Part shown: positions 40,572 through 42,252 of the stretch, piece by piece
Position numbering within the stretch: the first letter of the stretch is position 1
Layout: each line of letters starts with the position of its first letter
NCBI GenBank assembly: GCA_001917135.1
Contig: MNTT01000008.1
Coordinates: forward strand, 6,216 to 70,215
Direction of reading: 5' to 3'
Source of the DNA: Acetobacter sp. 46_36
GTDB taxonomy: Bacteria > Pseudomonadota > Alphaproteobacteria > RF32 > CAG-239
Length of the DNA stretch: 64,000 bases
The notes under the pieces: model-generated
What the model was told of the DNA's origin: nothing
What the model saw: only the letters and a program-made list of their open reading frames with translations
Databases searched by the model: none
Made by a program: the position numbers and the translations under genes

Positions 40572-40940
40572 TCACAAAAAGCGATCAGGCTGCAAACTTC
40601 GGATTACTTCTTCATAACATTTTTTCGCTTCCTCGGCAAAACGGTCGTCAGCCTCCGCCGCCCCCGCAACTATAAGCTTCAGCAGATATCCGCCGGCAAT
40701 ATCGCCCTTTTCATCACGGTTCACAACCAGCACACCGGCCGATTTGCCCAGCACATCCCGAACCTCCGGCACGATATTTTCAGCCACACAAACCGAACCG
40801 TCTGTTCCCCAAAGCCGCAAAGTATTCTTCCCGTCATAAGCCGCACGTTCAAACATTCGCGAAACGCCAGGCAGCTCTACCGCTGCGCGCCCGTCATGAA
40901 CATAAAACACACACTCTTCAATAGTCAGCGTTTCAGCCAT
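40572..40940 (-). CDS. hypothetical protein (122 aa), partner of the 422-aa orphan; paralog of ORF 48401..48817
   Basis: Its ATG shares one base with the upstream TGA (TGATG). It shares the block YDGK-T--L---DG---V--E-I--E---VL--S with the 138-aa ORF. Confidence 0.6.
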   Translation of the reverse strand: MAETLTIEECVFYVHDGRAAVELPGVSRMFERAAYDGKNTLRLWGTDGSVCVAENIVPEVRDVLGKSAGVLVVNRDEKGDIAGGYLLKLIVAGAAEADDRFAEEAKKCYEEVIRSLQPDRFL

Positions 40941-42208
40941 CAGCGCCCCCTTTTTGATTTCGTATTAAGTATTTGAAATGCCGCACCGCCGGCCGTACGT
41001 TCCTTAGGCTCTGCCACTGCTTCTTTATTGGTTAGCTTGTCTTTAAGCCTGCTTGATTTCCAATGGCAAAAACCCGTCGTCATAATCGTTGCGCCGGCCG
41101 CAGCCAAAGCCGGATTTCCCGTTCCCATGCCGGCCAACATTGACAAGCCGCCAATCGTTGCCGCCTGTTTCGGATTATCTTTCAAATAGGCTATATTCTT
41201 TTCAATGCAGTCCTTAAAGTAAGCCTTCATCTTGTCAAACAGCCTGCTGCCGCCGCTGTAGCTCTTGGCTTTGCGCACAAAGTCAGCAGTCTGCCCTTTG
41301 CCGACCGGATGCGCCGGCATTTCTTTTTCCAGCCCATACTTACGTTTAAGAATTTCGCTCTGATATTTTGCCGATTTTCTCAACTCTTCATCAACTTTCG
41401 GATTATTTGCCACCGCATCATAAACGCCTGCCACTTCGGCTGCCACGGCACTTCCCGTCTTGCTCTTATTCATCTCGCGCATTATATGCTTTGCCGCCTC
41501 AAAACAGTCTTCAGCATATTGCGGATGATCCGTTGCCACTTGGCGGTAATTATGCATCGTTTGATTGTACGCTGCAACGGCATCATCGGACGGAAACTCT
41601 TTTTCCAAACCCTTAACTTTATAAACCTCACGTTCGCTCGCGCTCATATACGCGTCTGCAACCTTTTCATCGCCAAAATAACGCGCCGCTTTGTTATATG
41701 TTTCTAGGCGATATCCCTCATTCTCAAAATAATGTCCGCTTCCGTCAATTCCAGCAAACAATTCCTTTTGCATATTCAATAACTTTGCAGAAAGCTCAGG
41801 CGATTCCGGCTCCACGCCGCGCGTCGCACGAATTAAATCGCTTGCCACGGCCTGATGGTCGTACGAAGTCGCCGGCGCATTAAGTGCTGCCGCCCTGTTT
41901 TTGATATCTTCAATTTCCTTAAAGGCTTCTGCCGGCTTGTCCCCTTGAAAGGCATTATCCCCGCGTGTTGCCACCCCATACGCAGCATTAAAACCTTCTA
42001 ACGGTTGCGCATTTTCATCTGTGAGAATATCTTTGTTTCCCATCTTAGCCTGCGCCGCCTCCATAACCTTTGCCAGCATTTCCTGCGCTTCTGCGTTGTC
42101 CGCAAAAACGCCGGCTTCCTTAGCCGCCTTTTCCATAATCTGACGAATCTCCGCATCGGAAACATTGCTTTCCCCCAGCCGTGCCAGCATCTCATCAAAC
42201 ATTCCCAT
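40940..42208 (-). CDS. hypothetical protein (422 aa): helical/charged with C-terminal Gly/Ala-rich hydrophobic segment
   Basis: ATG 42208 has an AAGGAGAG RBS. No catalytic motif. The C-terminus reads IGGLSMLAGMGTGNPALAAAGATIMTTGFCHWKSSRLKD and is followed by a basic tail. Confidence 0.65.
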   Translation of the reverse strand: MGMFDEMLARLGESNVSDAEIRQIMEKAAKEAGVFADNAEAQEMLAKVMEAAQAKMGNKDILTDENAQPLEGFNAAYGVATRGDNAFQGDKPAEAFKEIEDIKNRAAALNAPATSYDHQAVASDLIRATRGVEPESPELSAKLLNMQKELFAGIDGSGHYFENEGYRLETYNKAARYFGDEKVADAYMSASEREVYKVKGLEKEFPSDDAVAAYNQTMHNYRQVATDHPQYAEDCFEAAKHIMREMNKSKTGSAVAAEVAGVYDAVANNPKVDEELRKSAKYQSEILKRKYGLEKEMPAHPVGKGQTADFVRKAKSYSGGSRLFDKMKAYFKDCIEKNIAYLKDNPKQAATIGGLSMLAGMGTGNPALAAAGATIMTTGFCHWKSSRLKDKLTNKEAVAEPKERTAGGAAFQILNTKSKRGR

Positions 42209-42221
42209 AACATCTCTCCTT

Positions 42222-42252
42222 GTACAATTATAACTGTTGATTATAATTGTAC
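42222..42252. promoter_or_regulatory. perfect inverted repeat GTACAATTATAA-N7-TTATAATTGTAC (operator-like or 5' hairpin)
   Basis: 12-bp arms with no mismatch. Each arm contains TATAAT. It abuts the RBS of the 422-aa orphan gene. Confidence 0.6.

Follow-up and report, generated by a model that had tools for sequence, protein, structure and literature searches.

A pair of minus-strand genes lies between accD and grpE in a 64,000-nucleotide stretch of Acetobacter sp. 46_36 DNA (contig MNTT01000008.1; this whole stretch is hereafter the window), and an earlier reading of the letters alone (the original prediction) had singled out the two as translationally coupled orphans fronted by a palindrome. 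All sequence features listed there are present, with the minus strand as their strand. The large gene (40940-42208) starts with the ATG at 42208-42206 and encodes a protein of 422 amino acids (aa) with the N-terminus MGMFDEMLARLG; its C-terminal part reads IGGLSMLAGMGTGNPALAAAGATIMTTGF, followed by CHWKSSRLKDK and a basic tail that ends in KRGR. Its Shine-Dalgarno sequence, AAGGAGAG (42214-42221), is separated from the ATG by a 5-nt spacer (ATGTT, 42213-42209). The small gene (40572-40940) encodes a protein of 122 aa. Base 40940 is common to the TGA of the large gene and the ATG of the small gene (TGATG), in agreement with the coupling claimed for the pair.

The boundaries of the transcription unit could be read from the flanks. 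On the upstream side, accD (42511-43434, minus strand) is followed by a terminator-like hairpin (42462-42485, minus strand), indicating that the pair has its own promoter region. On the other side, toward grpE (38452-39114, minus strand), a terminator-like GC hairpin (GCCGCC...GGCGGC; 40530-40555, minus strand) lies 17-42 nt past the small-gene stop, is kept in four strains and marks the end of the operon. The accD hairpin and the hairpin 3' of the small gene thus delimit a separate operon with a 250-bp control region of its own, and the large and small genes form a self-contained bicistronic operon encoding a two-protein module.

Alignments divide the large protein into three modules. The N-domain (aa 1-66; 42011-42208, minus strand) is a three-helix unit of ~65 aa; the centre is a helical-repeat domain (aa 70-292; 41333-42001, minus strand); and the C-module (aa ~300-422; 40943-41311, minus strand) contains a Gly/Ala helical hairpin (41072-41173, minus strand). 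The structural model is all-helical, with a mean predicted local distance difference test score (pLDDT) of 74.5 and values mostly of 77-97 over aa 70-290. The protein has an acidic N-terminus and no signal peptide, the flanks of the hairpin are basic (pI 9.4 and 10.4), and the tail (pI 10.4) has a low pLDDT and is predicted to be disordered. The consensus of the C-module is K.KA..F...K.Y.GG..LF...K ... NPK....GAAAMFAG.GT.NPALAAAGA.IMTAG, followed by a variable basic tail and GR.

Related proteins combine these parts in several ways. The C-module was found in 35 proteins, including stand-alone forms of 109-136 aa, and, judged from these alignments, it is an autonomous module. Four proteins consist of the N-domain and the centre and lack the C-module (P0063, P0069, P0072 and P0077), and three carry the centre with other extensions (P0055, P0059 and P0068). 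In P0057, from locus L014, the N-domain and C-module enclose a different centre; in P0062 the C-module follows an unrelated N-terminal part of 290 aa; and in P0058, P0065 and P0067 it stands alone. The N-domain is likewise found joined to other C-terminal parts.

The distribution of the small gene identifies the part of the large protein with which it is associated. The loci fetched for this comparison were scanned in six frames with hidden Markov models (HMMs) for four units. In the window and in eight further lineages (L008, L011, L001/L009, L004-6, L007, L012/13, L014/15 and L016), the gene containing the C-module is in every case followed directly by a homologue of the small gene, with junctions that range from a 14-nt overlap to a 21-nt gap. 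Among these genes the large protein has three architectures, and the genomic contexts number at least five; both P0062, with its unrelated N-terminal 290 aa, and the L014 protein, with its different centre, are included. No small homologue was detected downstream of two members without the C-module, P0063 (L017) and P0055 (L018), while the contig carrying a third (L019) ends 64 nt past the stop and is uninformative. The small gene therefore tracks the C-module across architectures, and the partner of the small protein is this module; this central result of the analysis supports direct binding between the two. The neighborhood comparison proposed in the original prediction thus upholds the pairing, adjacency being kept in nine lineages with the C-module, and revises its terms, since the partner is the C-module and not the 422-aa protein as a whole.

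Several rearranged or fused forms were encountered among the relatives. In L014, an ORF (open reading frame) of 125 aa after the small gene (6428-6805) matches the second half of the central domain of P0063/P0072 and may be an orphan module fragment left from a rearrangement. P0017, on a 46-kb contig from ENA, is the window protein over residues 1-105 (one difference) and continues as an unrelated helical sequence rich in Asn, Ile, Lys and Glu. In L010 (5710-6306), whose contig has 1.9x coverage, an unrelated C-terminal part of 100 aa is joined to the small gene, and tsaE follows. These two fusions are either real rearrangements or assembly chimeras. Three candidate identities for the large protein were set aside. 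A sorting signal for sortase, exosortase or rhombosortase appears improbable, as there is no signal peptide and the tail past the hydrophobic part is too long; an encapsulin cargo peptide is similarly doubtful, with no GSL-type motif and no shell gene nearby; and homology to the 538-aa orphan at 10664-12280, despite the W.RLKD-like motif of the latter, was rejected on comparison.

The small protein has a pI of 4.7 and no predicted membrane segment (best 19-residue Kyte-Doolittle mean, 1.04). Its model (pLDDT 85.6) is beta-rich and consists of six strands, a helix, two strands and a helix. MAD2/HORMA was the sole name to recur, at E ~0.8 in profile searches of PDB sequences and with a Foldseek probability below 0.1, and was dismissed as noise.

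A distant paralogue of the small protein is encoded elsewhere in the window. This 138-aa ORF (48401-48817, plus strand; hhalign probability 91.8%, E = 7e-7; HMM E = 1e-6) lies directly upstream of genes for EIIA-Man (48818-49216) and HPr (49218-49496), components of the phosphotransferase system (PTS), at roughly the position where alphaproteobacteria usually carry hprK. It matches no entry in Pfam, NCBIfam or PDB, and an equivalent gene occupies the equivalent place in L001, L004, L005 and L009. Two further paralogues occur in L029, in the regions 7373-8364 (minus strand) and 5555-6408 (plus strand): one comes after a SlyB-like lipoprotein of 149 aa that has a true glycine-zipper 2TM domain (Pfam E = 3.9e-7), and the other after a 141-aa protein that has a hydrophobic stretch and no match to the C-module HMM.

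The junction of the two genes carries a double function that bears on the C-terminus of the large protein. The Shine-Dalgarno sequence of the small gene (AAAAGGGGG) lies within the last codons of the large gene (40943-40957, minus strand), where the window reads AAA AGG GGG CGC TGATG, and this embedding is found in most lineages: L001, L008, L011 and L014 have GGAGG-like sequences at the equivalent place, and the L004 junction is dual-purpose as well. The last residues of the large protein at the junction are accordingly Lys/Arg-Gly-Gly/Arg-Arg. In L007, where the Shine-Dalgarno sequence is located in the 21-nt spacer, the tail of the large protein is NQNQR, and in L014 a Gly-Gly-Arg lies four codons before the stop, in register with the ATG of the small gene and not with the end of the protein. 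A Gly-Arg C-terminus is present in most members, Arg being the last residue in most, and the terminal Arg is retained in some members that have no small gene; a count of ORFs ending in GR was uninformative. The conserved terminal Gly-Arg is thus largely explained by the use of the same codons as the small-gene Shine-Dalgarno sequence. The basic tail noted in the original prediction is present, its GR ending being in large part this ribosome-binding signal; that the terminal Arg and basic tail serve as an export signal is possible, if weakly supported.

Immediately upstream of the large gene lies a perfect inverted repeat, GTACAATTATAA-TCAACAG-TTATAATTGTAC (42222-42252), with arms of 12 bp and a loop of 7 nt; on the minus strand the arms occupy 42252-42241 and 42233-42222, and the end of the palindrome is 1 nt from the ribosome-binding site. 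As claimed, the repeat is free of mismatches and directly upstream of that site. Perfect inverted repeats with arms of 12 bp and loops of at most 12 nt number three in the window, compared with 0.1 expected from first-order Markov simulations of the window, and the remaining two are GC-containing hairpins at other places; the palindrome at 42222-42252 is more than a chance occurrence. The nearest relatives, L008 and L010, carry an identical copy; the following clade, L011 and L004, has a degenerate one (GGTACAATAATAGTCATCAGTATATAATTGG), and farther out none can be recognized.

Conservation of the control region points to the role of the palindrome. In six lineages, an A-tract followed by GTACA(A/C)T, all conserved, lies 37-44 nt before the ATG, even in L007, where the genomic context of the pair differs; in L004 and L007 the GTACA(A/C)T element is preceded, 16-17 nt upstream, by TTGAAT or TTGACT. 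In the window this conserved element makes TACAAT (42246-42251, minus strand), inside the left arm of the palindrome, the probable -10 box, while a scan of the leader for sigma-70 consensus promoters flagged no site, TACAAT included. With a start ~7 nt downstream of TACAAT, the transcript would begin within the loop and the left arm would remain untranscribed, which favors a DNA operator over a hairpin in the 5' RNA. Thus, of the two possibilities named in the original prediction, the operator is the more probable, and the RNA hairpin is disfavored (folded as RNA, the palindrome gives -13.5 kcal/mol, z = -2.5). The leader matched no Rfam family, and the frequency of GTAC in the window is not unusual. 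The distant members in L014 and L018 have another palindrome, perfect or nearly so, TGTTGACTATAGTCAACA (perfect in L018), over a TTGACT -35-like hexamer, together with a divergently transcribed gene for an Xre-type helix-turn-helix protein of 71-72 aa (L014, 4620-4960; L018, 4665-5000). These palindromes and Xre-type genes suggest that operator-like control recurs in the family with differing sequences.

Resemblance of the window palindrome to the LexA, Fur, Zur, CtrA and sigma-54 operators appears unconvincing. A second conserved upstream element, GTAC(G/C)-T-rich-CA(G/A)CAAT, lies ~125 nt before the ATG (window ~42330-42345, minus strand) and is found in several lineages (upstream regions of L007, L011 and L017), including L007, in which the pair is not beside accD. 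A copy of the palindrome arm with one mismatch, GTACAATTATGA (37866-37877, plus strand), overlaps the ATG of a 171-aa ORF (37874-38389) that has a hydrophobic N-terminal stretch.

Comparison with the genome recorded as uncultured Rickettsiales bacterium UMGS1453 allowed the evolution of the pair to be set against that of its neighbors. Nucleotide identity is 95-99% in the flanking genes, 74-94% in the large gene (61% in its tail) and ~81% in the small gene. The ratio of nonsynonymous to synonymous substitution rates (dN/dS) is 0.20 in the large gene and 0.27 in the small one, compared with 0.04 for accD, 0.02 for tsaB, 0.02 for lptF and 0.14 for grpE. These values indicate that both genes are functional, under weaker constraint than their neighbors; the pair is under purifying selection and evolves faster than the flanking genes. 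A further process emerges from the comparison of L011 with L004, in which a tract of 270 nt (L011 877-1147), made up of the N-domain and the 30 nt of leader just before it, is 98-100% identical, whereas the remainder of the large gene is 40-60% identical and accD upstream mostly 77-90%. This near-identity shows that the N-domain is exchanged through recombination, in agreement with tables of domain-wise identity, and the alignments mark the tract as one of recombination rather than a simple assembly chimera.

Searches for described relatives gave a consistent result. The best matches of the large protein in Pfam and NCBIfam had E values of 0.09-0.22, far short of the cut-offs; the small protein had none in Pfam-A (at E <= 1) or NCBIfam, and distant family members and the isolated C-module likewise had none at cut-off. 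In PHROGs, both proteins had only matches with E >= 0.012, and profile searches of PDB sequences gave nothing significant for either. The Foldseek comparison of models that had been proposed was equally negative: the large model retrieved from PDB and BFVD only TPR proteins and designed repeats (E >= 0.025, query-normalised TM <= 0.3), and the small model no significant neighbor in PDB (best E = 0.014, query-normalised TM < 0.3). The statement that the pair belongs to no recognizable family therefore stands for all libraries tried (Pfam, NCBIfam, PHROGs, PADLOC, PDB and BFVD). In a word-indexed search of 5.8 billion proteins, the large protein had 18 relatives and the small one 6 (24 with a profile), of which one bears a name, 'hypothetical protein'. 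An exhaustive search of 1.84 billion cluster representatives by HMM yielded 47 related clusters at E <= 0.001; the identifiable ones belong to Alphaproteobacteria that are uncultured and mostly live in the gut. Among genome records, UMGS1453 and one of an uncultured alphaproteobacterium are nearest. Matches in a metagenome scan were close relatives only, at least one of them labelled human gut, and 725 sequences fall into the cluster of the large protein at 90% identity; the organism appears to be common in human gut metagenomes. The pair is real, reproducible across lineages and undescribed, and is not a housekeeping family under another name.

These observations have led us to propose a model, to which we give a probability of roughly 0.4, whereby the small protein binds the weakly hydrophobic Gly/Ala hairpin of the C-module and neutralizes or chaperones it, the other modules being the payload. 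The large protein would be made in the cytoplasm and assembled from exchangeable helical modules, and its C-module would present a Gly/Ala helix-turn-helix hairpin, placed after a basic amphipathic helix and before a basic disordered tail, that is membrane-active or prone to self-association. The small acidic protein, whose translation is coupled to that of the large one on a shared mRNA, would bind the emerging C-module one-to-one and keep it soluble or inactive, acting as a holder chaperone or an antagonist, a logic like that of an effector or toxin with its dedicated binder. The variable N-terminal and central modules would then be the payload or the part that confers specificity. Transcription would start from the promoter with the TACAAT -10 box inside the palindromic operator, which suggests repression by a regulator encoded elsewhere. 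The anatomy, conservation and modularity of the pair, the strict association of the small gene with the C-module and the limits of the operon are observed, whereas the binding, membrane activity, neutralization and repression in this scheme are what we infer.

Several results weigh against neutralization of a membrane-active hairpin. The best 19-residue Kyte-Doolittle mean of the hairpin, 0.98, is below the transmembrane threshold of 1.6, and its apolar stretches, which flank TGNP, comprise only ~13 and 14 residues, less than a bilayer-spanning anchor requires; the Gly/Ala segment described in the original prediction is present, but it is too short and too weakly hydrophobic to serve as a transmembrane anchor of the classical kind. 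None of the Pfam glycine-zipper models was matched at E <= 10 by the C-module of the window protein (aa 297-422) or by four stand-alone C-modules, in a scan where the L029 lipoprotein, as control, scored E = 3.9e-7. Mirror-tree correlations do not separate the C-module from the central domain. Neither window protein matches PADLOC at E <= 0.1, and homologues are absent from IMG/VR and PLSDB (both proteins) and from INPHARED (large protein). That a distant paralogue of the small protein belongs to a PTS regulatory operon gives a hint of an adaptor fold of wider use. Among the nearest clades, the pair is found as a single copy in conserved synteny with accD, grpE and lptFG, no export machinery lying close by, and this placement among housekeeping genes would suit a resident cellular component equally well. 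Such a component would be a cytoplasmic scaffold particular to the lineage, held at the periphery of the inner membrane by the hairpin, with the small protein as stoichiometric subunit or regulator and nothing toxic or exported. The accD-grpE synteny of a single-copy pair under purifying selection, kept in at least four diverged lineages, agrees with this, as do the basic flanks on both sides of the hairpin, which fit a re-entrant anchor on the cytoplasmic side, the TPR-like helical-repeat centre, typical of scaffolds, and the housekeeping nature of the PTS operon in which the paralogue is found. The shuffled modules, stand-alone C-modules, N-domain recombination and faster evolution of the pair relative to its flanks are harder to reconcile with a scaffold, however, and the palindromic operators, with Xre-type regulators elsewhere, suggest tight conditional control and not constitutive expression; we consider a resident complex possible, if rather unlikely.

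Export of the large protein, for instance by type IV secretion of the VirB/D4 kind or by type I secretion, through the basic tail, would make the small protein a secretion chaperone. The modular, multi-architecture, fast-evolving nature of the family recalls effector repertoires, which are often so; the large protein, with no signal peptide and a basic, predicted-disordered tail (Arg-terminated in most members), has a small and acidic partner; and a gene with a VirB8 domain lies 1.8 kb from the distant family member in L018. Yet no secretion genes were found among the larger ORFs scanned with Pfam in the window or the syntenic loci, consistent with the earlier remark that no secretion, phage or mobile genes flank the pair in the window, and the T2SSE-family ATPase beside the pair in L007 has its best score as a divergent PilT-like protein, well below all family cut-offs, and not as VirB11. 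In addition, the terminal Gly-Gly/Lys-Gly-Arg is largely the small-gene Shine-Dalgarno sequence (the L014 motif keeping register with the small-gene ATG), and the fold of the small protein is unlike that of known secretion chaperones, all of which makes an exported effector distinctly unlikely. The same design of a sensor-like repeat, a possible membrane effector and a small antagonist could serve an abortive-infection-like defence in which the repeat senses a trigger, the C-module damages the membrane and the small protein is the antidote, and operators suggestive of tight repression, fast evolution and recombination would be in keeping with it. The PADLOC result, the conserved synteny among core genes, the location of the pair outside any defence island or mobile element and its absence from the searched phage and plasmid collections, on which a phage, plasmid or mobile origin was also rejected, render self-killing very unlikely. 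That the ORFs are spurious or decaying and have no function, as the missing annotation and the restriction of homologues to a narrow lineage might suggest, is scarcely credible in view of the intact frames, conservation down to 25-30% identity across genera, dN/dS of 0.2-0.27, confident models and the conservation of ribosome-binding sites, promoter motif and terminator. A bolder reading, which we hold to be improbable, is that the C-module and small protein form a portable targeting cassette of a kind not recognized before, which delivers or anchors interchangeable helical payloads in a lineage of gut Alphaproteobacteria that are common but uncultured. If true, this would be a new way to deliver or anchor proteins, or to restrain a hairpin with membrane activity, and would have a soluble adaptor fold of its own; a paralogue of that fold would also have been recruited to a PTS regulatory operon.

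Other features of the window were recorded in the course of this analysis. Just past the operon terminator lies a 17-nt tandem repeat (40444-40516; consensus TCATAACTGCCACTGTT, 4.3 copies); relative to the window, the array is shorter by 34 nt (two units) in L008 and L026 and by 51 nt (three units) in L022. Two small ORFs between the pair and grpE (39811-40281 and 39320-39814, both minus strand) have similar-sized genes at the equivalent position of syntenic loci; both carry a hydrophobic segment at the N-terminal end and a C-terminus rich in His, Arg and Tyr (e.g. YWHPYRYHRPHFYRWRHNRHFRHH), with no Pfam match and a dN/dS of ~0.3. Alignment with UMGS1453 (L008) shows in the window an insertion of 150 nt after tsaB (~44369-44518) and a poorly alignable intergenic stretch before an ORF with a PAS domain (~45269-45567). 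GATC occurs at 24 sites where a Markov model predicts 179 (ratio 0.13), and GGCC (0.45) and CTAG (0.52) are also low; this depletion suggests restriction pressure. Large ORFs with no Pfam match, all on the minus strand, encode 503 aa with many hydrophobic stretches (2894-4405), 463 aa ending in WRRRSAGR (4445-5836), 538 aa of charged helical sequence, rich in Ala and Lys over one region and with hydrophobic, Gly-rich stretches at the C-terminal end (10664-12280), and 356 aa (62491-63561).

Whichever interpretation proves correct, the pair is a defined, cloneable two-gene system with clear domain boundaries. As a resident scaffold, it would represent a lineage-specific cell-biological structure; if the large protein is membrane-active and restrained by the small one, the two would constitute a new pair of families for interaction with other bacteria or with the host, in a gut-community member about which little is known. 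Type II toxin-antitoxin modules usually encode the antitoxin, a DNA-binding protein, first, while here the small gene is second and neither protein has a family or fold match. The small protein has the size and pI of class I type III chaperones, but its modelled fold differs from their alpha-beta-beta-beta-alpha-beta-beta-alpha arrangement, and Foldseek finds no chaperone. The Pfam families PF05433, PF13441 and PF13488 (Glycine-zipper 2TM/YMGG/Gly-zipper_Omp) resemble the C-module in having a short Gly/Ala-rich helix-turn-helix, but their models leave the C-module unscored, and their members are usually exported lipoproteins, like the L029 example, whereas the large protein has no signal peptide.

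Agrobacterium VirE1, whose gene precedes virE2, is the export chaperone of VirE2 and prevents its premature self-association. The present pair is similar in that a small acidic partner is encoded beside, and co-translated with, a large cytoplasmically made protein with a basic C-terminal tail, but the genes stand in the opposite order, homology is absent, the window shows no type IV system, and the terminal motif is confounded by the Shine-Dalgarno sequence. In pore-forming colicins and Bcl-2-like proteins, a hairpin of ~35-40 residues is shielded in cis by amphipathic helices, and the immunity proteins of colicins are membrane proteins. The hairpin described here is likewise Ala/Gly-rich and helical and could switch between a shielded, soluble state and a membrane-inserted one; it differs in its length of ~31 residues, in having a separate soluble protein as candidate shield, and in showing no fold match.

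The closest parallel in logic is provided by TelE, a helical LXG toxin of the T7SSb (type VIIb secretion system) of Streptococcus gallolyticus whose C-terminal glycine zipper is neutralized through direct binding of TipE, a small, soluble DUF5085 immunity protein with no membrane helices (PMC10434224). In both systems, a largely helical protein bears a C-terminal segment rich in small residues, which in TelE is the active part; the large protein varies between alleles while its C-terminal motif is conserved; and a small soluble partner with no membrane helices is encoded downstream, TipE binding the segment directly as the small protein would here. The differences are equally plain, as there is no homology of sequence or fold, with no LXG domain in the large protein and no DUF5085 in the small one in Pfam scans; the host is a Gram-negative alphaproteobacterium with no type VII system; the canonical GxxxGxxxG zipper is absent; and the partner gene is adjacent and coupled, while tipE is the third gene downstream. 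The pair, known here from its sequence, therefore has a common logic with TelE/TipE but falls outside that system by every membership criterion compared, and, if the proposed restraint of the hairpin is true, it would provide a second, independent case of a soluble protein neutralizing a small-residue helical hairpin.

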